DNA from: a virus
Lineage: Duplodnaviria > Caudoviricetes
IMG/VR virus record: IMGVR_UViG_3300020578_000074
Location: 1-61,434 of that record
Strand: one strand, 5' to 3'
Length of the DNA: 61,434 bases
This document shows, piece after piece, positions 2,484 to 61,434 of the stretch (positions within the stretch are counted from its first letter, which is position 1; every line of letters begins with the position of its first letter). The notes beneath the pieces are model-generated. The model made no database searches, was not told where the DNA came from, and worked only from the letters and a program-made list of their open reading frames with translations. The translations under genes and the position numbers were made by a program.

Positions 2484-2975
2484 TCACCTACGAGCGGGGC
2501 TCTTTGGCACAGCCGTAATATTAGGCTGCTGAGACTGCGACGCCGCGTGATCCAACGAAGAATATGCTTCGGTTACAGCTTTCTTCATCGACAAAGTGTC
2601 CTTCTTAAAATTTGTCATAAGACTTACAACAGCGTTAAGTTGTTCTAAGTAATCTTTTCTACCATACTCAACATTCAGAGATGTGCTATTTTGCACCTCT
2701 CTGATCCCTTTGTTTATAACCAAAAGGCACTCGGTTATCCCCGCCAACATGAGCCCTGAAGTTTCAAGTAAGTCGGTAAAGTCATTCCTAATAGGACGGC
2801 TAACATCCGCAGGCCCTGGAGTGTATGCATAATCTACTTGCGGTATGCGATCATCCCTCCAATCTCTATCCTTGGGGAGGGGGCGACTCTTAAAACCGAG
2901 GGCGGCGGTACGACCTTCAAGGTCAGCAATCCGACCTTCAAGGTGACGGATAACATCAGCAGCACTTCTTCTCAT
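2484..2975 (-). CDS. Hypothetical protein with shared RTASE/RIARLE-type leader
   Basis: Starts MRRSAADVIRHLEGRIADLEGRTAA; GGAG RBS; TAATCCTTTTAT upstream (3040-3051). Confidence 0.8.
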   Translation of the reverse strand: MRRSAADVIRHLEGRIADLEGRTAALGFKSRPLPKDRDWRDDRIPQVDYAYTPGPADVSRPIRNDFTDLLETSGLMLAGITECLLVINKGIREVQNSTSLNVEYGRKDYLEQLNAVVSLMTNFKKDTLSMKKAVTEAYSSLDHAASQSQQPNITAVPKSPARR

Positions 2976-3055
2976 GATCAAGTCTCCAATATCGGGTTAA
3001 TGGATAGGGATTTATCCAATACTCACGCTTGGAGATAATATAAAAGGATTATTAA

Positions 3056-3508
3056 TTAGCGTCTATTCCTCGCTACTAATTTTGCCATCTCACGGAGAGC
3101 ATCATCTTCATCCGTCCTAGGATCAATTTCTTCAGCGAGTAGAAAGTAGCGGACCAAATCTCTCCTATCCCAACCTTCGGATATTTTCCGCTTAATATCT
3201 TTTTCTACCATCTTAATGCCCCTCATTCCATCGTAAGACCCGTAGTCATTTTCTTCAGCCCAAGCCTCAATGCTCTTGGTGCTGCGTCTAACAAAGTCCT
3301 GTAGGGCATCAACAACGCTAAAAAAGATGTCCTCGGCACGCTCGGCACGCTTATCATCATAAGGCTCATAGCGATCATCTCTCATCTCGCCTGTGTCGCG
3401 GGCATCGTAGTTGTCGGGGCGACCATAAGCGGTCTTGGTACGACCTTCGAGGCGGGCAACGCGAGCCTCAAGGCTTCTTAAAATCTCACCTGCGGTTCTT
3501 CTTATCAT
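3056..3508 (-). CDS. Hypothetical protein with shared leader
   Basis: Starts MIRRTAGEILRSLEARVARLEGRTKTAY; GGAG RBS; TAATCCCTTTAT upstream (3569-3580). Confidence 0.8.
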   Translation of the reverse strand: MIRRTAGEILRSLEARVARLEGRTKTAYGRPDNYDARDTGEMRDDRYEPYDDKRAERAEDIFFSVVDALQDFVRRSTKSIEAWAEENDYGSYDGMRGIKMVEKDIKRKISEGWDRRDLVRYFLLAEEIDPRTDEDDALREMAKLVARNRR

Positions 3509-3580
3509 GATCAGGGTCTCCAAAGGATTAATGGATAGGGATTTATCCAATACTCCCTTGGAGAGAATATAAAGGGATTA

Positions 3581-4546
3581 TTAAAGGTCACTCCAATCCC
3601 AATTCCCCGAAAGCCCATTACTATTGTAGTCGGATACGACACCCTCAAAAAAGTTCTTGAACGAATCACCACTTACGATCCAATCGAGCCATTTGAGTGG
3701 ATTATCCTTTTGCTTGAAGATGGGTTTGAGTCCGAGTTGGAGTAATCGTCTATCCGCGAGGTATCGGACATAGGTTTTAACTTCGGTAGCTTCAAGTCCT
3801 TGTAGTTGGACATTTCGGAACACGAGGTCTATGAGAGCATCTTCGAGTTCAACAGCTTTCTCATAATTGGTGTAGACGAATCGTTTGAGATCATCTTTAA
3901 CGATTTTTGGATTTTCCTCAATATAGGTGTGGAAAAGTTTGGTCATGCCTTCTACATGGACGGACTCATCTCGGATAGACCATTCCACGATTTCGCACAT
4001 ACCTTTCATTTTCCCAAAGCGTTGGAAGTTGAGAAGCATGACGAAAGCCGAGAAGAGGCTCATGCCTTCATTGCAGACGGAGCGAGCGAGTTCAAAAGCG
4101 AGGTGAGATTTCTTGGATAGTCCTGCGGGAGCTTGGGTCATGAATTCGATTTTATCTCGCATTTCTTTGAACTCTAGGAACAGGGAGTATTCGGACTCCG
4201 CCATACCTAAAGTGTCGTTCAAGAGAGCATAAGCCCTTTGGTGTGTTCCTTCCCGATTGGCAAAAGTGAGTAACATATTCCGCACTTCATTATTGGGAAA
4301 CGCAGGGATAAAGGTTGAGCAATAGTTCCCGCCGACCGCTACATCGCTCTGAGTGAATATCCGTAAAATCTGAGTGATGTGTTGTTTTTCTTCCTGCGTC
4401 ATGAGACCTGATTTCCATTGGTTTACATCGTCTTGAAGTTTGGCTTCCCAAGACCCCCAATGGATTTTCTCATGTTCTTCTGCGTACTGCATGGCCCATG
4501 GATACTTAAAGGGCTTGTAGGTGAGGCTAGGTTCGGTGAGACTCAT
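3581..4546 (-). CDS. nrdB: Ribonucleotide reductase class I small subunit
   Basis: YKPFKYPWA, FTQSD, EGTH, EG..LFSAF, RDESVH di-iron motifs, NFFE. Confidence 0.95.
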   Translation of the reverse strand: MSLTEPSLTYKPFKYPWAMQYAEEHEKIHWGSWEAKLQDDVNQWKSGLMTQEEKQHITQILRIFTQSDVAVGGNYCSTFIPAFPNNEVRNMLLTFANREGTHQRAYALLNDTLGMAESEYSLFLEFKEMRDKIEFMTQAPAGLSKKSHLAFELARSVCNEGMSLFSAFVMLLNFQRFGKMKGMCEIVEWSIRDESVHVEGMTKLFHTYIEENPKIVKDDLKRFVYTNYEKAVELEDALIDLVFRNVQLQGLEATEVKTYVRYLADRRLLQLGLKPIFKQKDNPLKWLDWIVSGDSFKNFFEGVVSDYNSNGLSGNWDWSDL

Positions 4547-4580
4547 ATTGGATAGTCCTGATGTGTGTGTGATTGTTTAG

Positions 4581-6284: not shown

Positions 6285-6307
6285 TTAGAGGCTCCTTGTG
6301 GGGTCAT

Positions 6308-7931: not shown

Positions 7932-8038
7932 TCTAGACTCCTTTCAGAGCGACGCAGGATGCGGCGGCTGTAGTTCGCGTTTAAGGGGGTTAATTGCCCC
8001 TGTAATCCTCTTTATAGAGCAAACCCTCACCCTCCCCC

Positions 8039-8067
8039 TTGCAATAGAGCAAATCTCTTTGTATAAG
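8039..8067 (+). promoter_or_regulatory. Sigma70-like promoter
   Basis: TTGCAA-17 bp-TATAAG with no downstream canonical ORF. Confidence 0.55.
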
Positions 8068-8073
8068 TGTCTA

Positions 8074-8380
8074 CAAGTTCACTTAGGGATCGTCCCCTAA
8101 GGCGTAGCCAAGTCACGAACGGCTAGACTCTTTGAAATCTAACCATCGCTAACCTGAAGGGGGTGGATACCCTTTAGGTTTCGACTAGGCTATGGGTAAC
8201 TCCCACTAAGAGGGATATGTCAGTTTCTGATACGCTCTTAGCGAACCCATAATCTCTGTTCATACGCTGAGGCTTAAGGACACCTGTCACTTAACGACAA
8301 GTTTCAAACAGCCCCTAGGGAGATGGATGGCTCTAATTACTTCCGTTAGAGGTCTTTGGTCTTTATGACCACCATCTAGT
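8074..8380 (+). ncRNA. Candidate structured non-coding RNA of unknown family
   Basis: Series of nested stems: 8082-8101, 8103-8114/8183-8194, 8151-8180, 8206-8241, 8321-8377; directly downstream of the promoter. Confidence 0.45.
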
Positions 8381-8384
8381 CTCT

Positions 8385-9500
8385 TACTCCGTATCCGTCT
8401 TTTATCCACCCTCTAAAGAACACAACCTACTAAACCCTGTCTTCTTTAGTTGTCCTCTCTTATCCAATAAGTATGGTCTTGGATAAGTACCCTCTTAACT
8501 ACTATCTTATCCATTAGGATATTGATCAGTCTAGTTATGTATCTCTTACTACTACTACTAGTAAGTACTTCTTCTTCTAGAAGACCAATAAGAGATAGAT
8601 AGCTCTACTAGAGCTTCTAGGGAATAGGACTTAAGACGGATACGAAGTATCGTCTAAGGACTATAGCCAATAAATACAAACAAACTATCCAATACAACTC
8701 AACAACCAACAACTCAACAACCAACTCAACAACCAACTCAACCGACAACTACTACAACTCAATCAACAACTACTAATACTCAAACAACCCCAACTAATAC
8801 TCAACCAACTACTCAACCTACTACTACTGCAACAACCTCTACTATAACCTCTACTACAATAATCCCTACTTCAACCTATACTCCGATTACTACTACTCCC
8901 CTATCAGCTATCACTCCCCTACCTACAACTCCCCTACCTACAACTATCCATACTTCAGCTTCTACTAGTACTCAGGTAACAACTTCAATCCATACTCAAC
9001 AACCTACTACTAGAAAACCTACTCAACAACAATCAACTCAACTACGGATAAAGTTACTAGCTACGGATAAGTTACTGAGTAAGTAAGACTCAGTAAGATG
9101 TCTCCTAGAGACTTCAAGCTAAGAAGACTTATTGTTGTAGTAAGTCTTACTCTAGATAAGAGAGATAAGATAATAGAGATAAGCGAAGATAAGAGAAATA
9201 AAACTTACTGAAGAATGGATAAGATTGGTGGTTGGATAAGAACCTACTGAGACAAGAACCTAGAGATAGAACCTACTGATAGAAGTCTAAAGACGGATAA
9301 GCTAGACTAAAGAATCTACAGTCGGATAAGAGGGATCAGTCGGATAAGAGGGATCAGGTATCTAAGAACCTACTGAGAGATAGATCAAAAGGTTCTCGGT
9401 CTACTGATGGAAGATAAACGGATAAAACCTTACTGATGGATAAGGTTCTAGGTGTCTATAGTCCACTAGGGAAACCTAGTGAAAAAGAAATCGACCAAGC
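8385..9500. other. Origin-like non-coding region
   Basis: Between divergent replication genes; local skew switch; C/A-rich core 8670-9050; GGATAA-containing and AAGAACCTACTGA repeats; 16/17 inverted repeat 8385-8401/8633-8649. Confidence 0.5.
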
Positions 9501-9733
9501 CCTACTGAGAGAAAAGGGAATCATGGGTTGGGTTATTAGGGGGGGTAAAGAGGCTTTATTGTTTTGAGCGTTCAGATGGGTCTATTTAAGTGTTTAAGGG
9601 CTATGGGTAGGGGTGTGGTAGGGGTTAAGGTTTATGGTGGTTGTTTTAGGGTTTATTGAGCGTTTAGTCTTTGGAGGTTGTGTGTGTTGGGGTTCTATAA
9701 GAGGAGGTGGAGAAGAAAGGAGGCAGTCAGATT

Positions 9734-11847: not shown

Positions 11848-11859
11848 TAATCCTTTTAT
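11848..11859 (+). promoter_or_regulatory. Representative putative late promoter TAATCCTTTTAT (TA-N5-TTTAT family)
   Basis: Same or near-identical 12-mer found upstream of about 17 leader/structural genes (see findings). Confidence 0.65.
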
Positions 11860-11916
11860 CGGTCCCTCCAAGGGAGAATGGATAAATCTATCTATTAATC
11901 TCTTGGAGTGACAATC

Positions 11917-12198
11917 ATGATCAGAAGAACCGCGTCAGAAGTTTTAAGAAGCCTCGAAGCCCGCGTTGCCCGTCTTGAGGGTAAGACCTCTAGCGGCAGA
12001 ACCGCTGGCAGCCGCTACTCTTGGCAGAAGTCTTTGTTCTCAGTAAATGGGGGTAGACCATCAACAGGTCTTGCTATTTTAGAACAGAACGATGGAGACC
12101 CTGAGGTCATTGAGCTGCTTCAGGAAGCTCTTAGGGATGGCAGTTCTAACCGCTTTAATATGGCTGAGATCACCCTGATTGCGGCGGTGAGGGGCTAA
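11917..12198 (+). CDS. Small hypothetical protein with shared leader
   Basis: Starts MIRRTASEVLRSLEARVARLEGKTSSGRTAG; GGAG RBS. Confidence 0.8.
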   Translation: MIRRTASEVLRSLEARVARLEGKTSSGRTAGSRYSWQKSLFSVNGGRPSTGLAILEQNDGDPEVIELLQEALRDGSSNRFNMAEITLIAAVRG

Positions 12199-13983: not shown

Positions 13984-14030
13984 TCCCTTTATCGGATACT
14001 CCTAGTTGTTCTTATACAGGAGTATCCAAT

Positions 14031-14527: not shown

Positions 14528-14998
14528 ATGGCTAGCGAGAAGTGGAAAGCGGGCAAAGAAATCCAAGACAAGATCAATGAGTTGGTGGGCAGTCACCATC
14601 CACATCTTGCCGATATATGTTATGATATTGTGGTCATCTTCAAAGAAAAGGCTTCCCGTAAGGGCGGATACCCTGTACTTGGTAAGACCTCAAAGGCTCC
14701 TGCCATTTTATCCGTATTGGGGGATCGTCAATATCAGTTTGTGATTGAGATTGGCAACGATGTCTGGCAGAAGCTGAATGTCGATCAACAGACCGCACTA
14801 CTCGACCATCTTTTATCCTTTATTCAGGGAGAAGAAGATGAGGCTACTGCGGAGATGAAGTACAGCCTCACCGAGCCTGATATTTACTACTTCACCGAAG
14901 AAGTGGCTCGTCATGGATATTGGCGACCCGACTTGTCGGATAAGCCCTCAGAAGAGAGCGAGGAGGGCGTAGACCCTCTAGATGACTTGCTGAAGTAA
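14528..14998 (+). CDS. Phage metallopeptidase-like protein with degenerate active site
   Basis: Family-like pattern LGK..KA, FVIEI..DVW..L...QQ.ALLDH; HExxH replaced by HLLSF. Confidence 0.6.
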   Translation: MASEKWKAGKEIQDKINELVGSHHPHLADICYDIVVIFKEKASRKGGYPVLGKTSKAPAILSVLGDRQYQFVIEIGNDVWQKLNVDQQTALLDHLLSFIQGEEDEATAEMKYSLTEPDIYYFTEEVARHGYWRPDLSDKPSEESEEGVDPLDDLLK

Positions 14999-18402: not shown

Positions 18403-19044
18403 ATGAGAACAGCTAGCGAACTATTAAGAAATCTAGAGATGCGTATCGCCCGTCTCGAATCGACAGCCTCAATGCGTACCGCCGCCTTGGATGCTGAGTA
18501 CCTGAAATATATAAATATGGTTTTCCCTCAGACCGCAGGGTCTAGCTCAGATGATCTAGCTGTGGGTGTACTTTCCATACTGCTCGAAGGTCTAAGCACC
18601 AACCTAGACGCTGTTACAAACTTTAAGCCCAAAAAAGGCGAAGCCTTTACTTCTAAGTCGGGTTATGTAAGAGGCGATGAGGATAATGATGATTTAGTTG
18701 CTCTGCCATACCCTGTGGTAGTTGGTGGGTCGATGGTTTTGAACTATAATTATGATGGGAGCGATTTCGCCCGCTTGTTCAAAAGTAGAACCCTACTAGA
18801 AGGGACCGCAGGACACAAGGATTTGGCGAATAAGCTCTTCAAGACGCTTACGGCAAAACTTGCCGATTATGAAGATTCTTTAGAAGAGGCAACTCTTATG
18901 GAGTTGGACTATCAGGTCAGGGGCATGGAACTAGTCCACAAGGACACGGAGTTGACCCTGAAGAACCTAAAGTGTCAATCCGTAAACGGCACATTCGTAC
19001 TCAGCTTACTCGTAGAGGTGGAGAGCCACCTTATTTATTCTTAA
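18403..19044 (+). CDS. Hypothetical protein with shared leader
   Basis: Starts MRTASELLRNLEMRIARLESTASMRTAA; TAGCCTGTTTAT at 18352-18363. Confidence 0.8.
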   Translation: MRTASELLRNLEMRIARLESTASMRTAALDAEYLKYINMVFPQTAGSSSDDLAVGVLSILLEGLSTNLDAVTNFKPKKGEAFTSKSGYVRGDEDNDDLVALPYPVVVGGSMVLNYNYDGSDFARLFKSRTLLEGTAGHKDLANKLFKTLTAKLADYEDSLEEATLMELDYQVRGMELVHKDTELTLKNLKCQSVNGTFVLSLLVEVESHLIYS

Positions 19045-20364: not shown

Positions 20365-20790
20365 ATGAGAAGAACAGCATCAGAAGTATTACATGACCTT
20401 GAGAGAAGAGTCGCTCGACTTGAGATGACCGCTGACGATGATTCTTTGAGCCGTCTTAGAGGTCTAGCTCAAAGAGTGTTGGATAAGAGCCCTGCGGATA
20501 GATTGAGAGAAAAAGCGGAAAGTGCAAGGATACGCACCGACCTCCGCAAAGCTATGGAGGATTGGATAAATCAGACGATTGAAGAGGGTATCGAGAAGGG
20601 CAAGATTCGTATGACAATCATGAGCGATCTTGCGAATAAGTTAAAAGGCGATCAGCCTTGGAGTTGGTTAGAGGACTCGGATTGGGAATATCTCGCCAAG
20701 TACCATCGTATCCCATTGAAGGGTAGCCTACCCTCATATAGCGTGTTTGACCATTTCCTCAAGGAGCATGGGCTATTTGTAGGTGGCTGA
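20365..20790 (+). CDS. Hypothetical protein with shared leader
   Basis: Starts MRRTASEVLHDLERRVARLEMTAD; GGAG RBS; TATATTGTTTAT at 20315-20326. Confidence 0.8.
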   Translation: MRRTASEVLHDLERRVARLEMTADDDSLSRLRGLAQRVLDKSPADRLREKAESARIRTDLRKAMEDWINQTIEEGIEKGKIRMTIMSDLANKLKGDQPWSWLEDSDWEYLAKYHRIPLKGSLPSYSVFDHFLKEHGLFVGG

Positions 20791-20878: not shown

Positions 20879-21325
20879 ATGAAAACTCGTTACGCTAGCG
20901 ATATCGTCCGTGATCTAGAGAACCGCATCAATCGTCTTGCTCGTCTTCAGGGACTTGAAGGAGATGATCTACCAATCATCTCCAATAGGATGGCGGCAGA
21001 AGATAAGTCTGTGAATCTCGATGTTGCCCCTGTAAAGAAGGCAATAGAAGTCTTGAAGTCAGAGTTCAAGGGCTTGCTCTCAGAGATAGGTGATCTGCAA
21101 ACTCAGCTAGATGAGGATGATGAGGTGACCTTTGACGAAGATGTATCCAATCCTTTAAGGTCTGAGGCTCGTGTGTTACAGAACGGCATTATGAACCATC
21201 TCGATCAGCCTGGTTCCGACCTAGCCCATGCTCTTCATGTCTTGGATGAATCGGTGGAGGCTATCCAAGAGATCGAGGCGGTCTTCAATAAGATCAACAA
21301 GCGTATGAAAAGTATCCGTAAGTAA
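20879..21325 (+). CDS. Coiled-coil protein with divergent leader
   Basis: Starts MKTRYASDIVRDLENRINRLARL; GGAG RBS. Confidence 0.75.
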   Translation: MKTRYASDIVRDLENRINRLARLQGLEGDDLPIISNRMAAEDKSVNLDVAPVKKAIEVLKSEFKGLLSEIGDLQTQLDEDDEVTFDEDVSNPLRSEARVLQNGIMNHLDQPGSDLAHALHVLDESVEAIQEIEAVFNKINKRMKSIRK

Positions 21326-30995: not shown

Positions 30996-31382
30996 TCAGA
31001 AACCAATAGCTAATCCCGTTTTAGCCTCAAACACTCTCCGAAGCTCCGAGCTATACACATTTTCGGCTGTGCTCACCACCTTCATTTTCGCACCACGGAC
31101 TCTAATAAACTCTAGGTCATAAAGGTCTAACCCATTTAGAGTAATCCTAACTACATTCACCGCCCCTGCATGGGGGAACAAGTTGAAGTGTAACTCCACC
31201 CCATTGGGCAAACTTTTGATCCCCTTTAATCCAATAAACACCTGTAGTTTTCTCGCTCCACCAAGCTGATCGACAATCTCACTAGCGACATTGTTCGCCC
31301 TCTTGCGGGTATTTCCACCCTCAAGGCGGGCTACTCTCATCTTAAGGCTTCTTAAAACTTCTGCTGCGGTTCTTATTGTCAT
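30996..31382 (-). CDS. Hypothetical protein with shared leader; paralog of 37139-37468
   Basis: Starts MTIRTAAEVLRSLKMRVARLEGG; perfect 18-bp stem 31393-31432 upstream. Confidence 0.8.
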   Translation of the reverse strand: MTIRTAAEVLRSLKMRVARLEGGNTRKRANNVASEIVDQLGGARKLQVFIGLKGIKSLPNGVELHFNLFPHAGAVNVVRITLNGLDLYDLEFIRVRGAKMKVVSTAENVYSSELRRVFEAKTGLAIGF

Positions 31383-31449
31383 GATCAAATCTCCAAGGGG
31401 TCAATGGATAGATTTATCCATTGACCCCTTGGGTGTTATTTAATATCTA

Positions 31450-32591: not shown

Positions 32592-33485
32592 ATGAGAGTA
32601 CACACAAGCCACACTAGAATCAGTACGAGGACAGCGATGGAGAGGACAGCGATGGAGCGTAGAGCGGCTGAAATCCGTATCGCTCAACTAGAGATGAAAG
32701 TAGCCTTACTAGAGATTGAAGCAGGTTTAGGTGACCACCTAAAGACCTTCTTCATAAACTATATCCAAAGTCCCGTTGTTTCTATAGCTTCTCTGCCTAA
32801 AAAGCTGTGGACAGAATTGTATAAAAAAGGGAAGCCCCTAGATGATATCTTTGAGATTGCTATAAAGCATCTCGCCCCCGAAATCACAAAAAAAGTGCGT
32901 GAGGCTCAGATTGAACTCCATGTGGAGGAGTTTAAAGCGGGTTTTGAAGCAAGAGAGACAGAACTAGCTTTGGGAGGCGGATATGCCGAGTTTGTTTTGG
33001 ATGACGACCACTCGGATGATTGGATAGCAGGATACAAGTACAGGGAAGAAAAGGGTGGGGTGTGGACTTCTGACCTACAAAAAGAGGTGGTAGAGATCGG
33101 ACTACGCGAGTGGTCTGATCTAATTGAAGTGTCCGTAGTCAAAACCACACTCATAGATATATTCCAAGCAGTCAATCCGATTGAACTTCTAAAGAGCATT
33201 TGGAAATCGGTTAAGAAGTATGGGATAAAAGTCGCCATACCAATTGTCATTATGGAAATACTGATTACAACCGTGCCTTTGTGGGCGACTAAATTAGTGG
33301 GACCAAAAGCGGCTCTGATTATGTCACAAATACCTGTGACCGAGCTACTTACCCCCGCATATCTAAAGTGGCTCGGAAGCGGATCAGCAGATGAGGATGT
33401 TGATGGGTATTTAGATTGGTACGAAAAGGAATTTGGGTCTGTTAAACTAGCAGGTCACACCCGCTCTTCTCGGATTCCATTCTAA
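32592..33485 (+). CDS. Hypothetical protein with divergent leader and hydrophobic segment
   Basis: RTAMERTAMERRAAEIRIAQLEMKVALLEIEAG; TAATCCATTTAT at 32546-32557. Confidence 0.75.
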   Translation: MRVHTSHTRISTRTAMERTAMERRAAEIRIAQLEMKVALLEIEAGLGDHLKTFFINYIQSPVVSIASLPKKLWTELYKKGKPLDDIFEIAIKHLAPEITKKVREAQIELHVEEFKAGFEARETELALGGGYAEFVLDDDHSDDWIAGYKYREEKGGVWTSDLQKEVVEIGLREWSDLIEVSVVKTTLIDIFQAVNPIELLKSIWKSVKKYGIKVAIPIVIMEILITTVPLWATKLVGPKAALIMSQIPVTELLTPAYLKWLGSGSADEDVDGYLDWYEKEFGSVKLAGHTRSSRIPF

Positions 33486-42389: not shown

Positions 42390-42851
42390 ATGATAAGAAG
42401 AACCGCCGGTGAAGTTTTAAGAAGTCTTGAGGCTCGCGTAGCTCGCCTCGAAGGCGGTCGTAAAATCGCAGCTAAGACCATGAATGTCTTTCAGCTAGCT
42501 GATTTTATGGTTGAGCGGTATGCCCGTTGGCAGAACATTTCTCGGAGAGAAGTCAGCGAAGCCCTTGCTGATTTCTTACTAGCACATTTTAGCGATGAAC
42601 TAGACCTTGAGACACAAGGAGATGTGATCAATATCGGGGCTTCAGATATTGATATCAATTATGCGGGGGAGTCACCCCTGCCTCAGTATTCACATCTGAA
42701 GTACACCGTATTCGCGGATGTCATTTTGACAAACCTCCTTACGGGTAAGCGTCTAAATGTCGAAATCTCCTTACATACTGACAAGAGCGGTAATCCCATA
42801 TTCTCCGAATATATGCCTAATACCAACCCCCTCTACGGGGGGGATTGGTAA
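42390..42851 (+). CDS. Hypothetical protein with shared leader
   Basis: Starts MIRRTAGEVLRSLEARVARLEGGRKIAA; GAGGAG RBS. Confidence 0.8.
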   Translation: MIRRTAGEVLRSLEARVARLEGGRKIAAKTMNVFQLADFMVERYARWQNISRREVSEALADFLLAHFSDELDLETQGDVINIGASDIDINYAGESPLPQYSHLKYTVFADVILTNLLTGKRLNVEISLHTDKSGNPIFSEYMPNTNPLYGGDW

Positions 42852-51206: not shown

Positions 51207-52252
51207 TAGCGATGTCTCTGTCTGAGTAAATACAAGTTCGTCTCATGGGCATTAGCTAGACTCATCACATAATCATCTAAACCCAAACTCATCTGATCCT
51301 GTTGCTTTAACATTTCGTAAAATACTTTTAAGGTCTTTTGCAGATTCTCTTCTATTTGTAATGCTCGCTTTAATGGGTCTTTCTCGCCCCTTGATTGTGT
51401 GATCAGATTAGATGTCATCATCTGTGCCTGATCCACGGCATCTAAACTTTCTGATCCAAACTCCCCAATAATCTTCTCTGCTAGCGTATCTATCTCATCT
51501 ACAAGCCCCCCATACAGCTTCTCCATCAATAAATGATCCCCATAAAAGGTGCTACCCTTTATCTGCCAATGGGAAGTCCAATGCGACCAATGTGCCGCTC
51601 TCAGAACCGCAAGTAATGCCTGCATTATGGATAACTTGTTGCTCATCTCACTAGCTCTCTTCCTGCGTTGTTGGATTTTTGACTTGTTTTTCTTGTAATA
51701 CTTCTTAGCATAGTCTTTACGATATCTCCTGAAGCTCGCATCCGACTTTACCCTTTTACGATAAGTCTTTCTCATCTGTCTGCGTCTTTGACTATCAGGA
51801 CGCTTACGGAGAGTTCTAGTTTTCTGAAGCATACGCTTCATTTGATGACGAGGGGCTCTTGCTAATCCCCCCTCTAGTTCCATCTCACTCGCCATCACAT
51901 TACGGATAGCCTCCCTATATTGAGACTCCATGTTCATAGCTTTTTTATCCCTTTCGTTCTTTTGTCCTCTTGTTGAAACCCCTCCCCCTTCATATCTTTT
52001 GAACAAGTGCGGAGTATCCCGATACTGCTTCTGATAACGAAGTATCCGTCTCTTGTTCAGCCTGTAATAACGCTTTCTACGCAGCTTAATCTTTGTCTTG
52101 TTCTTTCTGTTCTTACGCTTACGCTTAAGATAGTCCCTCTTAACTTGTCCCTTTTGTTTTCTTTGCCTGTTGCTAGGAGGCAATACGCTGATTATGGCTA
52201 CCTTAATCAGGTTCCCATAACTATCCGTATCCCAAAATCCATTAGATATCAT
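51206..52252 (-). CDS. Highly basic N-terminal region fused to Dps/ferritin-like domain
   Basis: K/R-rich tracts; HWQIKGSTFYGDHLLMEKLY...IDTLAE ferritin-like motif. Confidence 0.75.
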   Translation of the reverse strand: MISNGFWDTDSYGNLIKVAIISVLPPSNRQRKQKGQVKRDYLKRKRKNRKNKTKIKLRRKRYYRLNKRRILRYQKQYRDTPHLFKRYEGGGVSTRGQKNERDKKAMNMESQYREAIRNVMASEMELEGGLARAPRHQMKRMLQKTRTLRKRPDSQRRRQMRKTYRKRVKSDASFRRYRKDYAKKYYKKNKSKIQQRRKRASEMSNKLSIMQALLAVLRAAHWSHWTSHWQIKGSTFYGDHLLMEKLYGGLVDEIDTLAEKIIGEFGSESLDAVDQAQMMTSNLITQSRGEKDPLKRALQIEENLQKTLKVFYEMLKQQDQMSLGLDDYVMSLANAHETNLYLLRQRHR

Positions 52253-53807
52253 CGGTACGCCTCTTCATACCTGTGGTGTTCTGTTGGTTTATGTACGGAT
52301 GTCCGTACTGATCTCCAGGTAATCCACTAGACCTCGGGCGTTGGTGTAGGGGTTTCCCATCAGGTTGATTCGGTATCGCGTTTGGATTTGGCTGTTTCCC
52401 ATAAGATGTAGACGCACCTGAACTATCCGAAGGCGTGTTCATCACAGGAGGACCTGCCCTTTGTTCATCTCTCCCTTTAGGGTGTCCATCAGGTAACGGC
52501 AAAACTCTATCCCTTTGAGGTTTGCCGTCTTCCGAATCTCCTCGACCCTTCTCAGGGGCAGATGTGTCATTCTCTATTTGATCTTGGCGTGTCTTGTTTA
52601 CCCAAGTCTGCACACCACCTAGGTCTTGTGCAGGTTGTGCCGCAGATTGGATATAGCGAGCGGCTATCTTACTCGCTAACGCTTTTAACCCTGCGTTTCT
52701 GATTGAAGAGGAGTTATTGGCGAAGCCGCTGTCATAAGGGATAACCCTAGCTGAACCGCTGCCGCTATCATTCACATAACCCATATCCAATTTGTTGGCA
52801 GGGGTTCTCCCATTCGCCTCTGATTTATCCAAATTCCGATATTTGAGATTAGGTGAGTCAGGCGATGGACGACCGATGTTTCTAGCGGAGTCTCCATTCG
52901 GTAATGCACTATGTGACCCACTCCCATCAGGATTAGTATCCTTATTTGTTACCGACCCATTCGATAAACTAGACAGAGAGTCGGGAGGTATCACCTCCCG
53001 ATGGAAATCGGATACTCTATCCGAGCCTTTCTTTACCTTCTCAGCATCCTCACTAAAAGTCGGAGTGTTAACAGGCTTTTTTCCTTTATGTTTCGCTTCT
53101 TCCGTCTTCTTTTTGCGAGCGAGGGCAGCTCTGTCTTCTTTGGGCATCCCCCAAGCCTTCTCTCGGGGCATACACTTGAGGGGCTTACTTCCGTTTCCTG
53201 TGACAGAAGCCCACTCTTTCTCACTAGAGACGGCACATGGGCCAACAATATCTCCGGGTTCATAAGTCTTATCCTCACCTTCCTCTTTCTTGATCGTGTG
53301 CTTTACAGGCGTAATCGCGACCCAATCCCCCCAAGTAGCTCTGTCTTCAGGGTCTCCTCCGCCATGTCCTGCGAACCAAGTACCTAAACCCCCCTTACCC
53401 GTGTTCTTGAGTTTAGGGTCGTCACGCTTCGCTCCATAGCGTTCCGCCACTCTTTCGGCAGATGTTTTCCCATAACAGTTCTTATAGGGGCGACAAGAAG
53501 CCTTTTCAGAAAACCCCATATCCTCGCAGGGTTTATCCTCACAATGGGATAAATCCCATTTACGAGGCATCTTGAACTCAGAACCTTCTTTTTTCCACTT
53601 GCCGCCTAGACGCTTATACTGAGCCAAAGCCCAACCATTCGCGTAAGCGGAAGGAAAGGTGCGGAACCCTGCTCCATCGTTAACAGGATTGACAGACTCC
53701 CCACCACGGACAACAGGCTTGTTCCGTTCCCCTTTAGCTAGAGCTTGAAGTTCAGCCCACAGCTTCTCATCCACAGGGACATTCTTACTACCAAACTTGT
53801 TATCCAT
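52242..53807 (-). CDS. Mosaic late protein of small modules
   Basis: SAYANGW..YKRLGGKWK, Cys module MGFSEKASCRPYKNC, GGLGTWF..KCMP, disordered C-half; TAATCCTTTTAT at 53842-53853. Confidence 0.75.
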   Translation of the reverse strand: MDNKFGSKNVPVDEKLWAELQALAKGERNKPVVRGGESVNPVNDGAGFRTFPSAYANGWALAQYKRLGGKWKKEGSEFKMPRKWDLSHCEDKPCEDMGFSEKASCRPYKNCYGKTSAERVAERYGAKRDDPKLKNTGKGGLGTWFAGHGGGDPEDRATWGDWVAITPVKHTIKKEEGEDKTYEPGDIVGPCAVSSEKEWASVTGNGSKPLKCMPREKAWGMPKEDRAALARKKKTEEAKHKGKKPVNTPTFSEDAEKVKKGSDRVSDFHREVIPPDSLSSLSNGSVTNKDTNPDGSGSHSALPNGDSARNIGRPSPDSPNLKYRNLDKSEANGRTPANKLDMGYVNDSGSGSARVIPYDSGFANNSSSIRNAGLKALASKIAARYIQSAAQPAQDLGGVQTWVNKTRQDQIENDTSAPEKGRGDSEDGKPQRDRVLPLPDGHPKGRDEQRAGPPVMNTPSDSSGASTSYGKQPNPNAIPNQPDGKPLHQRPRSSGLPGDQYGHPYINQQNTTGMKRRTDDI

Positions 53808-54020
53808 TTAGGCTCTCCGTTGGTTATATCAACGGGGGGCTATAAAAGGATTAATCCTTGAGTCAGTAACTCGTCTTGGCTCGTTTTATTAATTAATACT
53901 ACGGATAAAAAGCAAGAACCCCATATGCCCTCTCAAGGTCATCTCCCCTTGTGTCGTGCGGTCGTCACCTAGTCTGACCGCCACCCACACTCAACCCCTG
54001 TAGAACAACCGACATTTATC

Positions 54021-54641
54021 TCACAGGTAGTGACTTAGGTCGAACATGACCGTCAGGGTTCCGTACATCGAGGGGTAAACACCGCTCTTCTTATCCGCAG
54101 CAGGGAAACTTATATTTGAGTAGGTCACCCCAAATTTCTTGCAGAAAGACTGCACAGCAGTAATAACCTCTGTTCTTTCTTTAATGTCGTCAGGTGTGAC
54201 GGTATATCCCCAAAACTGTTTGATACCCGTTAAACCCCTTTTTACTTTTACGATCTCACTAACCGGTTTTGGTGCTCTGAAAAACATCCTAACACCTATA
54301 GTGTATGGAACTAAGAGCTTTCCCGCAGCCAGGTCAGTTTCAGAAACATCTTGCCATGAGAATCTAGTCCCCTCTACCACTATGCTAACTGTGGGTCTAT
54401 CTTCCCCAGATACTTCGGGGATTCTGATGGGGTTTACAGACTTTTTCTCAATCACTTTGGCAAGTCCGTTACGAAAATTAGGATAGAGGGTGTCCCTGAA
54501 CTCCTCTTGCATCTCTTTTGCCCTTGGGAGGCTTCTCAGAATGTCTAGCACAGAGGCTGTGCGGCTTGAGCTAGAATCCTCAAGGCGGGCGATTCTCACC
54601 TCAAGGTCGTGTAAAACTTCACTTGCAGTTCTTCTGATCAT
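54021..54641 (-). CDS. Hypothetical protein with shared leader
   Basis: Starts MIRRTASEVLHDLEVRIARLEDSSSSRTAS. Confidence 0.8.
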   Translation of the reverse strand: MIRRTASEVLHDLEVRIARLEDSSSSRTASVLDILRSLPRAKEMQEEFRDTLYPNFRNGLAKVIEKKSVNPIRIPEVSGEDRPTVSIVVEGTRFSWQDVSETDLAAGKLLVPYTIGVRMFFRAPKPVSEIVKVKRGLTGIKQFWGYTVTPDDIKERTEVITAVQSFCKKFGVTYSNISFPAADKKSGVYPSMYGTLTVMFDLSHYL

Positions 54642-55057: not shown

Positions 55058-56254
55058 TTAAACGCCGAAAAAGTTATCGGGCATCCATTTAGGTTCAGGA
55101 GCTACTCCCTTACTCCAAATAAAGATTGGCTCACAAAATATCTCCATATTGGATAGTTCATCTAATGTGGAGAAGTTGCTACCGGGTCTTTTACTCATTC
55201 GGTATCCAATTACGCCTTCATAGGTTGCACCTAGGCTCTCCATGTAATCGAGCATGGGCTGACAAATCTTTACATCTCCCTTAACCTTGTCGGATATGTT
55301 TATAGCGATCCTGCCTCCATCTTCTAGGCAATCCCAACTCTTCCTAAGAACAGGGAAAAGAAATATATTTAACCAATCGTCTAGTCTTTTGTATCTTTTC
55401 CAACTTTGTGTCGGCTCTTCTGAATATCGTTCCGTGTCGAAGTACGGAGGGCTTGTAAATACAAAGTCTACCTTTAGACCTGAGAGATCGGCATCTTCAG
55501 CAGGAGAACGGATAAATCGGGTTGATTTATCCGTTTCGCAGTAGTCAACTATCCGTTGATATGGTTCATGGAGTTTGGTGTTCGGGTCTATTCCCACATA
55601 ACTCTCCGCTCCGCTAGCTAAAAATCCAACCAATCTATCCCCCCACCCTGCGGAGAAATCTAAGACCCTCTTAGCCCCAAAAAAGTCATATAAGCCTTTG
55701 GCAAGTGCGGGCTTGAACTGACTCGCCACATAGCCTGACAAAGCGATGCAAGAGAGCAAGACTCTACTATCCACACCTTGGGTTGGCTTCATTAAAGTCC
55801 ACAGGGGACGAAGAAAAAACCTTTTACTGCTCATGCCTTCCCTAGTCCATTGTCTTATGGGGCTAGGGTATTGGATATGTCCAGCTTCACAACGAGTCGG
55901 TTCAACAAACTGATTGGATACTTTAAGTCCCTTATTATTGGGGGCGAAGTAAAGGTGTCTCCCTTGATAAGTGGTGCTTTTAACAGAGACTCTAGGTAGT
56001 CCCCACTCACTCTCTATGGGATTTAGAACATCATGTTTAATATCTAGCCAATCCCTTTTCACATCTTGGGGAGTGTATTTAGCGTAGGGAAAAGGAAGTG
56101 TACTGATGATATTGGATAAGTGGTCGGTCAATTCTTCTTGTGTATAGTTATCCGTTAGCTCTGTCCATATGTGTGCGGGTATGCAGATTTCATTCATCTT
56201 GGTGAGAGAGTATTCCTCAAGCCTTCGCTGAGGTTTCTTTTCGTACTCGAACAT
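55058..56254 (-). CDS. DNA methyltransferase (SPPY-type amino-MTase)
   Basis: VLDFSAGWGDRL, YVGIDPN, FTSPPYF; start probably 56254. Confidence 0.88.
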   Translation of the reverse strand: MFEYEKKPQRRLEEYSLTKMNEICIPAHIWTELTDNYTQEELTDHLSNIISTLPFPYAKYTPQDVKRDWLDIKHDVLNPIESEWGLPRVSVKSTTYQGRHLYFAPNNKGLKVSNQFVEPTRCEAGHIQYPSPIRQWTREGMSSKRFFLRPLWTLMKPTQGVDSRVLLSCIALSGYVASQFKPALAKGLYDFFGAKRVLDFSAGWGDRLVGFLASGAESYVGIDPNTKLHEPYQRIVDYCETDKSTRFIRSPAEDADLSGLKVDFVFTSPPYFDTERYSEEPTQSWKRYKRLDDWLNIFLFPVLRKSWDCLEDGGRIAINISDKVKGDVKICQPMLDYMESLGATYEGVIGYRMSKRPGSNFSTLDELSNMEIFCEPIFIWSKGVAPEPKWMPDNFFGV

Positions 56255-56307
56255 CAAAGTCATTCCCCTTGTTATGTCTCTGTCCGTCACATATACAAAA
56301 CGAATAG

Positions 56308-56446
56308 GCACACCAACAGCCCTGTGACCTGTTACATGGGGAAAGGGTGAAAACCCATATCGTCAAAGGCTTCCTACACCGCTTAGTCCCTGACACCCTT
56401 CTTCTTCGGAATAAGACCAAGTGGCATAGGGAGGCGGTTGGTGTGC
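56308..56446. ncRNA. Candidate structured RNA element
   Basis: 13/14-bp closing stem 56308-56321/56433-56446, internal stems and a cUUCGg hairpin on the + strand. Confidence 0.35.
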
Positions 56447-56996: not shown

Positions 56997-57470
56997 ATGT
57001 GGATAAGAGGGAGTGAGACATATTCCGAAGAAGATTTCTTAACTGAGATCGGGAACGGACTACGCGACACTTCCAAGTTAGATGTGGTGGTTGGTGCTGA
57101 TAGTCAACCATTTGCTAATGGGACGCTTATTGTCGTAGCTGTATGTTTTTTGTCCCCCGATAAGAGATATCACGGCAGGTGTTTTCACAAGAAGCTACCA
57201 ATGTTACGACCTTTTATGGATTTGTACTCTAGGGTATATGCCGAGATGGAGGCTTCTATCTCGGTGGGACAATCCCTCATGAGGCTTTACCCATCCTGCC
57301 CCATAACTATCCATTTAGATGTGAACTCACATCCGAGGGGGTACACCTACAGGTGGTCGAGCGGTTTAGTGAGCATTGTAAAGGGGTATGGATTTGACCG
57401 AGTAGAAACAAAACCTAATGCGTGGTGTGCGTCCTGCGTGGCGGATAAGTACACCAAGCGTTTTCAGTAG
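56997..57470 (+). CDS. RNase H-like YkuK (DUF458) family protein
   Basis: VVVGADSQ, R.YAE...SI, IHLDVN, KP.AW.AS..AD. Confidence 0.8.
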   Translation: MWIRGSETYSEEDFLTEIGNGLRDTSKLDVVVGADSQPFANGTLIVVAVCFLSPDKRYHGRCFHKKLPMLRPFMDLYSRVYAEMEASISVGQSLMRLYPSCPITIHLDVNSHPRGYTYRWSSGLVSIVKGYGFDRVETKPNAWCASCVADKYTKRFQ

Positions 57471-58342
57471 CTTCTACGGAAATTCCTACGGCTGCCAATT
57501 TTCACGGTTTGCTCCTCAGGAAAGGGAGGGAACACCTCTACCTCACCACGGGAGAGCATACCTGCGGCGAAGTCCACCTCACCCTTGTCTGCGTCAAGGA
57601 CAGGCATATCTTTACGATCAGGAGCCCAAGATGGGACTGTTGTTGTAATGTACTTGGCGTTTTCGGATAAAGTGCGGATAGCAACTTCAACATCACCAAA
57701 CTGCTTTATGAAGGCAGACTTGACATCTTCAGCCTTACACCCAAACTTACCACCAATGCCTGCGGGGAGTCCATTTTCAACTGCCTCTCTGCACATCTTT
57801 GCAACATATGCAGGATTGAAGTTTCCAATATCACCCGACCCTGCATTTCCATTTCTTCCCGAATAAAGTCCTTTTGTGACAACATTCAGAACTCTAACTA
57901 GTTGACTTCCAGGTAGGTCAACTTGAATGCCTCCAACCTTTGCAGCCTTACCGAAAAGAAGAATCATTGCTGCCCAACGGTGATGTCCGTCCATGATGAA
58001 ATTGTCGTTAGAGATGATAGCACCAAGATTTGGGTCAATCTTATTGTTGTTGATCATCCAAACAATCATGCACAAAGAGTTTCCAGGTAGCATGGTGGTT
58101 TGTGAAGGTTTAAGGGCAGCGGCAGCGATAGTGCGATTCTGAGACTTAATCTTGTCCCCGCTTCTGTCACCTGCGTGAATGAGAGCGGCAGCAATCTGTG
58201 GGTCTACTTGGCTCAACTTCTTTGCGTTTTCGTACTCGTTCTCGATGACCTCTGGCGTGAGTACCACTTCTGCTGCTCTTCTTTCAAGGCGAGCGATACG
58301 GGCTTCGAGACTTCTTAAGACATCACTTGCGGTTCTCATCAT
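57464..58342 (-). CDS. ParB/Srx-like domain protein with shared leader
   Basis: MMRTASDVLRSLEARIARLERRAA; LKPSQ and IISNDNFIMDGHHRWAA motifs. Confidence 0.8.
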   Translation of the reverse strand: MMRTASDVLRSLEARIARLERRAAEVVLTPEVIENEYENAKKLSQVDPQIAAALIHAGDRSGDKIKSQNRTIAAAALKPSQTTMLPGNSLCMIVWMINNNKIDPNLGAIISNDNFIMDGHHRWAAMILLFGKAAKVGGIQVDLPGSQLVRVLNVVTKGLYSGRNGNAGSGDIGNFNPAYVAKMCREAVENGLPAGIGGKFGCKAEDVKSAFIKQFGDVEVAIRTLSENAKYITTTVPSWAPDRKDMPVLDADKGEVDFAAGMLSRGEVEVFPPFPEEQTVKIGSRRNFRRSY

Positions 58343-59342: not shown

Positions 59343-59632
59343 ATGTTTGTCCAAATGGTTTCGCCTTTGTCGTTGTACAACTTCACATAGAATTCAGAAG
59401 TGGATACTCCCTCGAACGCGAGGGCGACTTGTGTTGCCTGTTCTTGGCTCTCAAAGAGAAGAACACCACCCGTCAACAAAGCATCTTCGGATAGTGTGGC
59501 GTGTTTACGGATTTTATGTGTCACGGAGGAGATGCAGGGGGGTTGATCTTCAAAAGGCATAACAGCGACCAAGAACTTATTTTCGGTTCTTGCGATGTGT
59601 CCATATATACTCGTATGTGCGATGAACTTCAT
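59339..59632 (-). CDS. Hypothetical protein
   Basis: AGGA RBS; fills gap between genes. Confidence 0.55.
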   Translation of the reverse strand: MKFIAHTSIYGHIARTENKFLVAVMPFEDQPPCISSVTHKIRKHATLSEDALLTGGVLLFESQEQATQVALAFEGVSTSEFYVKLYNDKGETIWTNI

Positions 59633-59657
59633 GAAGTAATCCTAGGGAGTGTGAGAC

Positions 59658-60644
59658 ATGATTAAAGTGCTGTGGAGGACTGATGTTCACTTAGCCGACC
59701 GAACCCCAAAACGGAGGACGGGAGATTGGTCTATGGATGTTGTAGATAAGCTGAAATGGATAGGTCGAAAGGCAAAGGATTTATCAGTAGATTTGGTGTT
59801 AGACGGCGGGGATTTTTTTGATGTGAAGTCCCCCACTCGGAACTCCCATGCTTTGGTTCGTTCAGCTTGTGAAGCACACAAAGATTACCCTTGTCCTGTA
59901 TATGCCCTTGTGGGTAATCATGATGTGAAGTATGGAAATATCGAATATCTACCTGAACAGCCCTTGAGCGTTTTGTTTTCAGCATCGGTTTTTAGGCAGT
60001 TCGGTGACTCTGAAGAGATTTTCGTAACGGATGAAGAGGGCATTTCTTTACGGATAGTGGGTGTCCCTTATCACGGAACAGAGTACGATTTAGATCGGTT
60101 GAGGAATATTAAAAAGGGACCTGAGGATTACTTGTTTGTGGCTTGTCACTTATTAGCCCGCTCAGGTGCAGGTGGCAGTATGTTTGAAAACGAAGATATT
60201 GTCGGTTATGATTTATTGGATAGTATCCCTGATGTGGATTGTTGGTTTTTTGGTCATTGGCATAAGGATCAAGGGATAACGAGGTTATCGAATGGTGGCT
60301 ATGTGGTGAATGTGGGTAGTTTGACGCGAGGTGCCTTGCACCTTGATGATTTAGACCGATCCCCTTGTGTAGTGGAGGTGAGCGTCAGCGTAGCTGGCTT
60401 ATCCGTTATCCGCCATGATGTACCTATTAGACCTGCGAGTGAGGCTTTCAAGGTGGAGGAGGCGATAAGGGAAAAGGATTCAAAAGAGAGAATGGAACAG
60501 ATAGTCGAGAAGATGAAACAAGTCGCCACTACGGGTTGGTCTCATTTATCTCTAAAGGATAGAGTGCGGAGTGTAAAGGCTTCAAATGGGGCTAAGGAGT
60601 GTGCTTTGGCTTATCTTGAGCAGGTGGATAAAGAAGACTTATAG
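59658..60644 (+). CDS. sbcD: SbcD/Mre11-like metallophosphoesterase nuclease
   Basis: TDVH, GGDFFD, VGNHD, CH, GHWH, NVGSL.R. Confidence 0.85.
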   Translation: MIKVLWRTDVHLADRTPKRRTGDWSMDVVDKLKWIGRKAKDLSVDLVLDGGDFFDVKSPTRNSHALVRSACEAHKDYPCPVYALVGNHDVKYGNIEYLPEQPLSVLFSASVFRQFGDSEEIFVTDEEGISLRIVGVPYHGTEYDLDRLRNIKKGPEDYLFVACHLLARSGAGGSMFENEDIVGYDLLDSIPDVDCWFFGHWHKDQGITRLSNGGYVVNVGSLTRGALHLDDLDRSPCVVEVSVSVAGLSVIRHDVPIRPASEAFKVEEAIREKDSKERMEQIVEKMKQVATTGWSHLSLKDRVRSVKASNGAKECALAYLEQVDKEDL

Positions 60645-60688
60645 TTCCTTTATTCATCCGTTGTCTCGTCAATCAAAGGAGTGAGGCA

Positions 60689-61434
60689 ATGGATAACATA
60701 AAGAGAGCAATGGTGCGTGTGGCGTATGAGAATCGGCAGATAGGGTTGCTTATTTCTCGTATAGCTCGCCTAGAGAAAGAAGCGGACTTAGACCCTCCTC
60801 TAGGTCTAGGACCCTGTGGTATTGCAGATCGCATTTTAGGGACTGATCCCAAGAATTTAGCGAATCTAGACCCTCGCGTGAAAGAGGAATATAATAAGCT
60901 CTTATCCGAGATTAATAGTACCCCCATGATATCGAAGGGTACTCCACCCGTTAAGTCCTTAAACCTAGACAAGAAGTTAGAGAGAGCTGCTTATCCGAGT
61001 ACGATATTTGAGACCATCAGCGTGATGAAATCAACAGTTAAGGTTGAGTTGAGTCCTCACACCCAAGCCCGATTGGATTCTCGTGAGATCAAGATGGACT
61101 TCTTATTAGAGGGTATCCGTCAAGTGTTAGCCTTTAAGTGGATTTACGCACATATAGCAGCTTTGTATGAGAGACTTGGACCTATGGGGTCTGCTGATGG
61201 GGATGCGAGGTACAAGGTAACGGGGGAACATAAAGGACATATTTTGTCGGTTATTCCGAGATGTAACGAAATCAGCAAATCAGCGTATGAGGAATGGCTT
61301 TATGAGCCCTTCCACATAGAGAAGAAGGAGCATGGGGAGGTGGTGAAAGTTTCCATCTCAAAGGCGTTGACGATTGAGGAATACTTAAAAACAGATGGTC
61401 AAAAGTTTGAGGCTGCACAGATTGTGCGTTTGTA
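60689..61434 (+). CDS. Late protein with divergent leader, 3'-truncated by the window end (absent from the ORF track)
   Basis: MDNIKRAMVRVAYENRQIGLLISRIARLEKEAD; frame open to window end; TAGTTCCTTTAT at 60642-60653. Confidence 0.75.
   Translation, partial: MDNIKRAMVRVAYENRQIGLLISRIARLEKEADLDPPLGLGPCGIADRILGTDPKNLANLDPRVKEEYNKLLSEINSTPMISKGTPPVKSLNLDKKLERAAYPSTIFETISVMKSTVKVELSPHTQARLDSREIKMDFLLEGIRQVLAFKWIYAHIAALYERLGPMGSADGDARYKVTGEHKGHILSVIPRCNEISKSAYEEWLYEPFHIEKKEHGEVVKVSISKALTIEEYLKTDGQKFEAAQIVRL

Follow-up and report, generated by a model that had tools for sequence, protein, structure and literature searches.

A portable N-terminal helix on unrelated proteins of uncultured jumbo phages, a candidate capsid-loading tag

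The stretch of DNA analysed here, hereafter called the window, is the whole of the IMG/VR record IMGVR_UViG_3300020578_000074 (61,434 bp, CheckV completeness about 20%), and the element of interest in it is the leader, a peptide of about 22 residues found at the N-terminus of proteins whose remaining parts (hereafter bodies) look unrelated. Because the window codes for a giant tail sheath (42% identical to the sheath of the 485-kb uncultured phage LR745208.1), RecA, both subunits of ribonucleotide reductase (RNR), a RecD-like helicase and ThyX, together with clamp-loader subunits, several DNA methyltransferases and two tRNAs, it is a piece of an uncultured jumbo phage with a genome of roughly 300 kb. 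Nine core open reading frames (ORFs), named here by their start positions (Table 1), open with M(I)RRTAxEVLRxLExRVARLE, and a profile made from these nine copies and run on the 1754 six-frame stop-to-stop peptides of the window found every one of them at the start that an earlier note on this DNA had given (E 1.4e-17 to 6.4e-14), the leader of 2975(-), MRRSAADVIRHLEGRIADLE, being the most divergent. That note had also listed three divergent versions. One of these, 20879+, is indeed a tenth copy (E 2.1e-4, and 1.0e-4 in a separate profile search of the whole record that gave the identical 10 places), whereas 60689+ (E 0.14) and 32592+ (E 0.5) stay at the level of decoys, the best reversed-sequence decoy having E 0.17. 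Unsupervised short-BLAST clustering of the N-termini of the window yielded a single cluster of 11 members, which includes 20840/20879 and 32592. In all, 10 of the 12 proposed copies are supported, on proteins of 93 to 292 amino acids (aa).

Selection acts on the leader as a peptide, as had been claimed. Between the copies in 3508 and 42390, 7 of 66 nt are different and 6 of these changes are synonymous (an exact match to the earlier count), and all 36 pairs of the nine copies together show 235 synonymous and 173 non-synonymous codon differences, with Ser6 encoded by both the TCA and the AGY families; such a synonymous excess, along with the use of two serine codon families, therefore indicates that the peptide is what is kept. 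Conservation of the DNA rather than of the peptide is ruled out by the synonymous variation. Among homologous leader proteins with bodies about 31% identical, the 19-residue core of the leader is 87% identical (n=33 pairs, from a set biased to strong leader matches). The consensus of 224 sequences reads M-R-R-[TS]-A-S-E-[VI]-[LI]-R-[SND]-L-E-[MA]-R-[VI]-A-R-L-E-[RGK]-[QRK]-[ATS]-[AST], and several of its positions are invariant, which the anchor of the alignment in part imposed. The heptad-like amphipathic helix proposed at the outset is borne out by the spacing of the hydrophobic positions (L9, L12, V/I16 and L19) and by structure models: in the AlphaFold model of 58342 (predicted local distance difference test, pLDDT, 94.9) the leader is a helix from residue 5 to 22, and in that of 42390 it is a helix from 6 to 22 of low confidence (pLDDT about 55), with a linker at 21-27 whose pLDDT is below 50. 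These models suggest that the leader is an amphipathic N-terminal helix of about 20 residues, tied to its cargo by a short linker.

The bodies themselves proved as unrelated as first supposed. An all-against-all BLASTP comparison of residues 25 to the end in the 12 proposed leader proteins gave a best E of 0.098 over 7 residues, none of the 12 matched Pfam or NCBIfam, and PHROGs matched 2 of them, in separate families of unknown function. A single divergent paralog family as the origin of the bodies is ruled out, there being no BLAST relation among these 12 and 141 groups among 217 bodies gathered from the databases. The two bodies that were modelled differ in fold, that of 58342 being a ParB/sulfiredoxin-like alpha/beta domain and that of 42390 a confidently modelled alpha+beta domain that found no fold match in the PDB at E<=1e-3. 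The description of the 58342 body as ParB-like has weak fold support, as its best Foldseek match is the N-domain of pNOB8 ParB (E 9.3e-4, template modelling score 0.25-0.29), and matches to sulfiredoxin are weak as well; an invariant DGHHRW motif marks the family of this body. The body of 31382, which matches phrog_9437, is also found in 40 records of cultured phages, including phages of Rhizobium, Pelagibacter, Vibrio and Sinorhizobium, where it forms a protein by itself, about 95 aa long.

Outside the window the leader is widespread. A HMMER search with a 30-position profile found it in 910 of 1,835,955,588 cluster representatives at E<=1e-3, and in a word-indexed search of 5.8 billion proteins 566 of the 8000 scored candidates matched at E<=0.01. 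The profile matches 229 of the 232 proteins that were collected, with the leader beginning at residue 3 or earlier in 221 of the 229 and internally in the others (several of which have a Met immediately before it); one collected match, P0171, is a TPR false positive. The median length of 217 leader proteins is 143 aa, none of 150 scanned reached the Pfam cut-off, and their sources include marine surveys and contigs of up to 375 kb. A degenerate DNA pattern of the leader is found in at least 134 IMG/VR stretches. P0001, P0002, P0012, P0035, P0119 and P0141 contain two or three leaders, in tandem or in a leader-body-leader-body order, and look like fusions of neighbouring leader genes or polyprotein-like arrangements. 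Scanning the profile over the window record and related phages, as had been proposed, gave 10 places in the former, which served as the positive control, and 12 to 31 in four large relatives that are complete or near-complete, namely 31 in G004 (375,691 bp, rated complete), 17 in G005, 21 in G006 (mostly the second half of the leader alone) and 12 in G007. In the cultured-phage collection, a tblastn search with the 30-residue leader found no match even at E 10, a query so short that it may have been masked, and the full 292-aa leader protein found none at E 1e-3. Literature searches by leader strings, by strings of the second tag introduced below and by concept returned no description of either tag in the literature that was accessible.

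The closest comparison is with G004, whose core proteins are 50-80% identical to those of the window, with 77% in RecA, 78% in the RNR small subunit, 75% in the clamp loader and 53% in the sheath. Five of the nine core leader genes of the window align with G004 in the leader alone, two have no match, one matches weakly and one (31382) is orthologous. Since the core is conserved and the bodies mostly are not, the tagged genes belong to the variable fraction of these genomes, and in G004 they are dispersed over the 375 kb. As judged by these alignments, the tag is better conserved between the two phages than the core proteins are. The leader is a portable, peptide-selected tag, carried by about ten unrelated proteins in the window and by at least hundreds of families in its relatives.

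LR745208.1 shares with G004 89% identity in the capsid protein, 72% in the portal and 42% in the head protease, and the leader was not found in it (best profile E 0.14). Unsupervised clustering of its N-termini instead brought out another tag, M(T)TLRSKLIRLAHENPALRPQLLPLLKEA, which is about 28 residues long and opens 9 ORFs whose bodies differ (examples in Table 1), and one of these ORFs, 398171-398575(-), sits inside the head operon, between an acidic scaffold-like gene and the genes of a 208-aa protein and of the capsid protein. A third flavour, MNKVSAQQIRSLEMRIARLEKEAG, is found in G006, where six or more paralogous genes stand in tandem between 145000 and 160000 (locus L185). The homologues of the 58342 body bring these tags together. 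Among 2955 candidates scored, 136 were related at E<=1e-5, and the best 120 were examined for tags: the window-type leader was present in 8 and a shortened NLHxRIARLE form in 2, the LR745208.1-type tag in 17 (at the C-terminus in 9 of these, and at both ends in P0272 and P0280), a K/R-rich N-terminus ending in LFE before DD in 19, LAKIARxNP in 3 and, by pattern, TASDRxxLIRxAS in 2 (P0240 and P0243 have a TASDR-type tag at the C-terminus), while 29 had a short N-terminus and the ends of 40 were unclassified. Homologues of this one cargo thus bear five or more tag types, at the N-terminus or the C-terminus, so that the same cargo wears the local tag of each lineage. In two of three loci on viral contigs (L003 and L004) the gene of the LFE form, whose leader is short and T4-like, immediately follows the gene of a Gp23-family capsid protein (PF07068, E 3.6e-76), the third locus being cut by the end of the contig, and the next genes in the T4-like contig code for short N-terminal peptides ending in L/I-x-E-like motifs, L/I-x-E being the motif at which gp21 of T4 cuts. 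Peptides of this kind make up the capsid targeting sequence of T4. Because related tag types are found at the N- and C-termini of one cargo family, a docking helix fits better than a classic cleaved N-terminal propeptide.

Signals upstream of the leader genes also bear on their use. G004 has 52 copies of a box, TAG[TA]T[TC]N[TC]TTAT, situated 50-63 nt before start codons (mean of shuffled sequences 2.65); 20 of these immediately precede leader genes, none immediately precedes any of 16 replication-class genes, and the runs of genes that the box heads take in 6 of 10 late-class genes, namely those for the 208-aa protein, capsid protein, protease, sheath, baseplate wedge and amidase. The corresponding box of the window, AATCCYTTTAT, has five exact copies and precedes three leader genes, the non-leader gene 14031 and the gene of a protein with an HExxH motif, the G004 ortholog of which adjoins the portal gene. 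From their position and pattern, these boxes are probably promoters, and late ones, in which case the genes behind the TAGTTTNTTTAT box would be expressed late. Three leader genes of the window have a strong hairpin in the 5'-untranslated region (UTR), with z of -4.4, -6.2 and -6.4 and none of 200 shuffles folding as well; weaker hairpins precede 54641 and 20365 (z about -1.7 to -1.8), and the other four of the nine core genes have no convincing hairpin upstream. Most leader genes of G004 share a 5'-UTR hairpin with GGAG in its 3' arm. The UTR sequence differs between the window and G004, whereas the leader peptide does not. Box and hairpin together, the latter enclosing the ribosome-binding site (RBS), therefore point to a common expression module just upstream of the leader genes.

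The capsid protein of these phages has 292 aa and is of the HK97 type (PF25209; 48887-49765(-) in G004), and its relatives number 2097 at E<=1e-10, the best 120 of them 88-96% identical and on contigs of up to 300 kb; this points to an abundant clade with an almost frozen capsid protein. The G004 head protease belongs to phrog_18299, a family other than that of the T4 prohead protease. PF07068 (Gp23) is absent from all four large leader-positive records, the T4-like record G001 being positive, and Peptidase_S77 (PF03420) was not seen in G004-G007, the control genomes being equally silent. Two head proteins are candidate readers of the tag, on resemblances that are not statistically significant. 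An acidic 513-aa protein encoded between the protease and capsid genes of G004 contains, by eye, the strings ..NARVARLAD.. and ..NARLARKVRKLAD.., with the RVARL core of the leader, and was not picked up by a permissive scan with the leader profile. The C-termini of the proteases (..IRLVRLAKLLS.. in G004, ..TLIRLASLLS.. in LR745208.1) similarly resemble, by eye, the tags with a LIRLA core, that is, the LR745208.1 and TASDR types. Inspection by eye of the leader and the G004 head proteins (capsid, 208-aa, portal, 513-aa and 1171-aa) revealed no convincing cutting motif in common.

Table 1. Positions of leader genes, expression signals, head genes and other features (E, profile E-value)
Feature	Record	Position	Strand	Remarks
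Leader gene, 163 aa	window	2484..2975	-	E 6.4e-15; leader at 2910-2975 (~22 codons)
Leader gene, 150 aa	window	3056..3508	-	E 6.9e-17; leader at 3443-3508; acidic body
Leader gene, 93 aa	window	11917..12198	+	E 1.4e-17; leader at 11917-11982
Leader gene, 213 aa	window	18403..19044	+	E 1.7e-14; leader opens MRTASELLRNLEMRIARLE
Leader gene, 141 aa	window	20365..20790	+	E 2.1e-15
Divergent leader copy, 148 aa	window	20879..21325	+	MKTRYASDIVRDLENRINRLARLQG; E 2.1e-4 / 1.0e-4
Leader gene, 128 aa	window	30996..31382	-	profile match; body residues 32-125 are phrog_9437
Leader gene, 153 aa	window	42390..42851	+	profile match; structure model
Leader gene, 206 aa	window	54021..54641	-	profile match; same strand as, and upstream of, HExxH and sheath genes
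Leader gene, 292 aa	window	57464..58342	-	profile match; DGHHRW body, weakly ParB/sulfiredoxin-like
Conserved protein, 297 aa	window	32592..33485	+	leader-like N-terminal helix (…RRAAEIRIAQLEMKVALLE), hydrophobic C-terminal part; E 0.5, by clustering only
ORF leaving the window	window	60689..61432	+	proposed divergent leader LISRIARLEKEA; decoy-level score, excluded from the family
Box AATCCYTTTAT	window	3569..3579	-	~60 nt upstream of the 3508 start
Further exact copies of the box	window	3040-3050(-), 11849-11859(+), 13982-13992(+), 53842-53852(-)		
5'-UTR hairpin	window	3517..3564	-	before 3508; 3' arm with GGAG ribosome-binding site
Equivalent hairpins	window	11862-11912(+), 31393-31432(-)		
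Second-tag ORFs (examples)	LR745208.1	398171-398575(-), 351838-352536(+), 389893-390948(-)		
Acidic scaffold-like and head protease genes	G004	50555-52096(-), 52134-53582(-)		
Acidic scaffold-like and head protease genes	LR745208.1	398706-399974(-), 399989-401413(-)		
Tail sheath, 1605 aa	window	44760-49577	-	giant ORF, several-fold longer than usual
Protein with SNF2-type helicase segment, 1802 aa	window	22905-28313	-	giant ORF; late-type box precedes it in G004
HExxH protein, 521-aa ORF	window	52242-53807	-	G004 ortholog with HExxH motif, near portal gene
Dps/ferritin-like DNA-binding domain ORF	window	51206-52252	-	next to HExxH ORF; G004 ortholog with very basic N-terminal half
Putative phage metallopeptidase	window	14528-14998		PF18894
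ADP-ribosyltransferase domain	window	35941-37035	-	"polyvalent protein" type
DNA methyltransferase genes or fragments	window	63-365(+), 19611-20018(+), 34737-35861(-), 55058-56311(-)		

On the basis of context and analogy, we consider it moderately probable that the leader is an exchangeable, lineage-specific capsid-loading tag, similar in its working to the capsid targeting sequence (CTS) of phage T4 and not homologous to it. Three lines of evidence link the tag to the head, each indirectly: the box shared with capsid genes, the second tag within the head operon of LR745208.1, and the LFE-form cargo behind a Gp23 gene. That a cargo wears the tag of its lineage is the strongest indirect argument for seeing the 22-mer as a local loading tag. 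If this is so, the tagged proteins would be made late in infection, together with head and tail proteins; the helix would dock its cargo on the interior of the assembling prohead, either at the scaffold or core or at the site of the head protease; and the cargo, enclosed in the capsid, could exit together with the DNA when the next cell is infected.

Several observations weigh against this interpretation. The leader genes of the window are dispersed on both strands amid replication and nucleotide-metabolism genes rather than in a head module, and in G004 two of the 16 replication-class genes, those for the RNR small subunit and for RecD, belong to box-headed runs, while 23 copies of the box precede genes of unknown role; the genes of the relatives, moreover, were called by a simple longest-ORF rule. 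The body of the 31382 type occurs leaderless in cultured phages, with no mark of a virion protein there. The internal proteins of T4 are described as highly basic (bioRxiv 10.1101/2021.01.19.427310), and the median isoelectric point of 217 leader-protein bodies is 5.8, which is not uniformly basic. The last residues of the leader, A-R-L-E, put Arg at P3 and fit neither the cutting motif of T4 nor those of SPN3US and phiKZ (S/A/G-x-E in phiKZ). Lastly, the near-invariance of the capsid protein across differently tagged phages argues against a simple receptor on that protein, and the conservation of the head protease (42%) in the differently tagged LR745208.1 means that protease specificity does not explain the tag.

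A broader proposal, which we advance tentatively and would call plausible rather than probable, is that of a clade-wide address code, in which interchangeable terminal helices (the 22-mer, the LRSKLIRLAH..LLPLL hairpin and others), specific to a lineage, placed at either end and possibly copied from docking helices of the scaffold or protease, would let the virion load 10-30 fast-evolving proteins for co-injection.

Of the other explanations, the one that fares best is that the leader is a general assembly or oligomerisation helix, through which tagged proteins would bundle with one another or on a hub (for example the membrane-associated 32592 family) into a cytoplasmic or membrane-bound body. 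We regard this as unlikely. The heptad-like spacing would suit it, as would the recurrence of the string RIARLE in papers on the Jun/AP-1 leucine zipper, the tandem and internal leaders of some proteins, the occurrence of related tag types at either terminus, and the leader-like helices of two proteins that are conserved, namely 32592 (whose ortholog in G004, at 367127-368125, is 27% identical over 304 aa) and G004 67345-67938, but the helices of these conserved proteins are not significant by profile. Oligomerisation also leaves unexplained why the tags on one cargo are swapped between lineages, why a T4-like cargo lies beside a capsid gene and why a tag gene of LR745208.1 lies in the head operon. 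It is, besides, compatible with capsid loading, since a capsid could be loaded by way of co-assembly with a helix of the scaffold.

We find it improbable, and distinctly more so, that the leader serves as a detachable pro-sequence, holding proteins in an inactive or unfolded state until it is cleaved by a phage protease, a matter of timing with no targeting. The conserved junction after the helix (E, then [RGK][QRK][ATS][AST]) and the internal leaders, which look like polyprotein joints, would agree with it, and the window codes for a putative metallopeptidase (PF18894) as well as for the HExxH protein. However, a short helix on a flexible linker is unlikely to inhibit more than 140 unrelated folds, inspection by eye found no cleavage motif in common with the head proteins, and C-terminal and double-ended tags suit docking better than masking. 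Very improbable is a signal for expression or turnover, be it a translation-initiation region, a regulator site on the mRNA or a degron: leader genes do have a common box, and a hairpin that pairs with the RBS is present in 5 of 9 in the window and in most of G004, but synonymous sites vary freely while the peptide is kept, the UTR changes between the window and G004, and tags at the C-terminus of homologues cannot initiate translation. Known degrons, in addition, are shorter than the leader and do not form helices. A secretion or membrane-targeting signal, which the N-terminal position, the M-R-R start and the presence on many small proteins might suggest, is hardly credible, as the leader is modelled as a soluble amphipathic helix, charged throughout (5 Arg and 3 Glu per 20 residues), and its consensus M-R-R-T-A-S-E-V-L-R-S-L-E-M-R-V-A-R-L-E, with no hydrophobic run or core and no signal-peptidase site, does not resemble a Sec or Tat signal peptide.

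Other genes and regions of the window are listed in Table 1. To the methyltransferase genes there we can add that G004 has five similar methyltransferase paralogs in one run. Between divergent genes at 7932-9706 lies a region of 1.8 kb with no ORF of at least 45 aa, with strand asymmetry and with many short direct repeats (ACT/CAAC runs and GGATAAG-like units); an Rfam search of this region gave no match, and it may be an origin of replication or some other non-coding region with a control function.

If the tag does load the head, hundreds of dark-matter families, of which the 150 proteins without a Pfam match are a sample, would be candidates for travelling with the DNA, and in T4 and P1 such co-travelling proteins include counter-defence factors. 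The injected proteome of hundreds of uncultured jumbo phages could then be read from sequence, a compact conserved tag would be at hand for packing foreign proteins into large capsids, and a testable question would arise on how giant phages fill their heads with dozens of proteins, namely which component of the head recognises the tag, and in what way the two change in step between lineages while the capsid protein stays 89% identical.

Among known systems, the T4 CTS, to which the leader had been likened from the start, holds its place as the nearest analogue, as one peptide is common here to ten ORFs with unrelated bodies. The CTS loads internal proteins into the prohead core, with a cargo that includes anti-restriction proteins delivered with the DNA (PMC3012670, PMC5694885, bioRxiv 10.1101/2021.01.19.427310); the internal proteins are described as diverse defence proteins with only a CTS in common (PMC3012670), and the CTS as a sequence of about 10 aa that is cut once and taken off when loading is over (bioRxiv 10.1101/2021.01.19.427310). 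In both cases a short N-terminal peptide sits on unrelated, fast-evolving proteins of one phage (IPI, IPII, IPIII and Alt in T4). The two peptides have no sequence similarity, however, and the tag described here has 22 residues rather than about 10, is helical and heptad-spaced and ends in R-L-E; it belongs, moreover, to phages with a 292-aa HK97-type capsid protein (PF25209) instead of a Gp23-type head, and to 10-31 genes per genome instead of a handful. The DarB protein of P1, whose first 30 residues suffice to send a reporter protein to the capsid (PMC9024508), is alike in having an N-terminal capsid signal of about 30 residues and unlike in that the signal is described there for one protein. 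Like the phages studied here, phiKZ and SPN3US are jumbo phages with many internal head proteins, the N-terminal regions of which are proposed to target them into the prohead, with AXE and SXE as cutting motifs (PMC5694885). Their propeptides are mostly longer than 100 residues, have no common sequence and end in AXE or SXE, whereas the leader is a near-invariant 22-mer with no such motif.

The cargo-loading peptides of encapsulins and the encapsulation peptides of bacterial microcompartments are short and terminal, are joined by a flexible linker at either end of the protein, and dock unrelated cargo inside a shell. The leader may be similar as a short terminal helix on a linker (the latter seen in one model), but the window-type leader itself was seen only at the N-terminus or at internal joints. 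The shell of encapsulins has the HK97 fold (PMC8346489). Their cargo genes adjoin the shell gene, unlike the scattered leader genes, and the shell in the present case is the DNA-filled head of a virus. The maturation protease of HK97, reportedly, is targeted into the procapsid by its C-terminal region (Duda, Oh and Hendrix, 2013), a terminal segment there serving to enclose a head enzyme, and the protease endings of G004 and LR745208.1 resemble tags by eye. By analogy with these systems, the leader would work in the way of the T4 CTS without being homologous to it.

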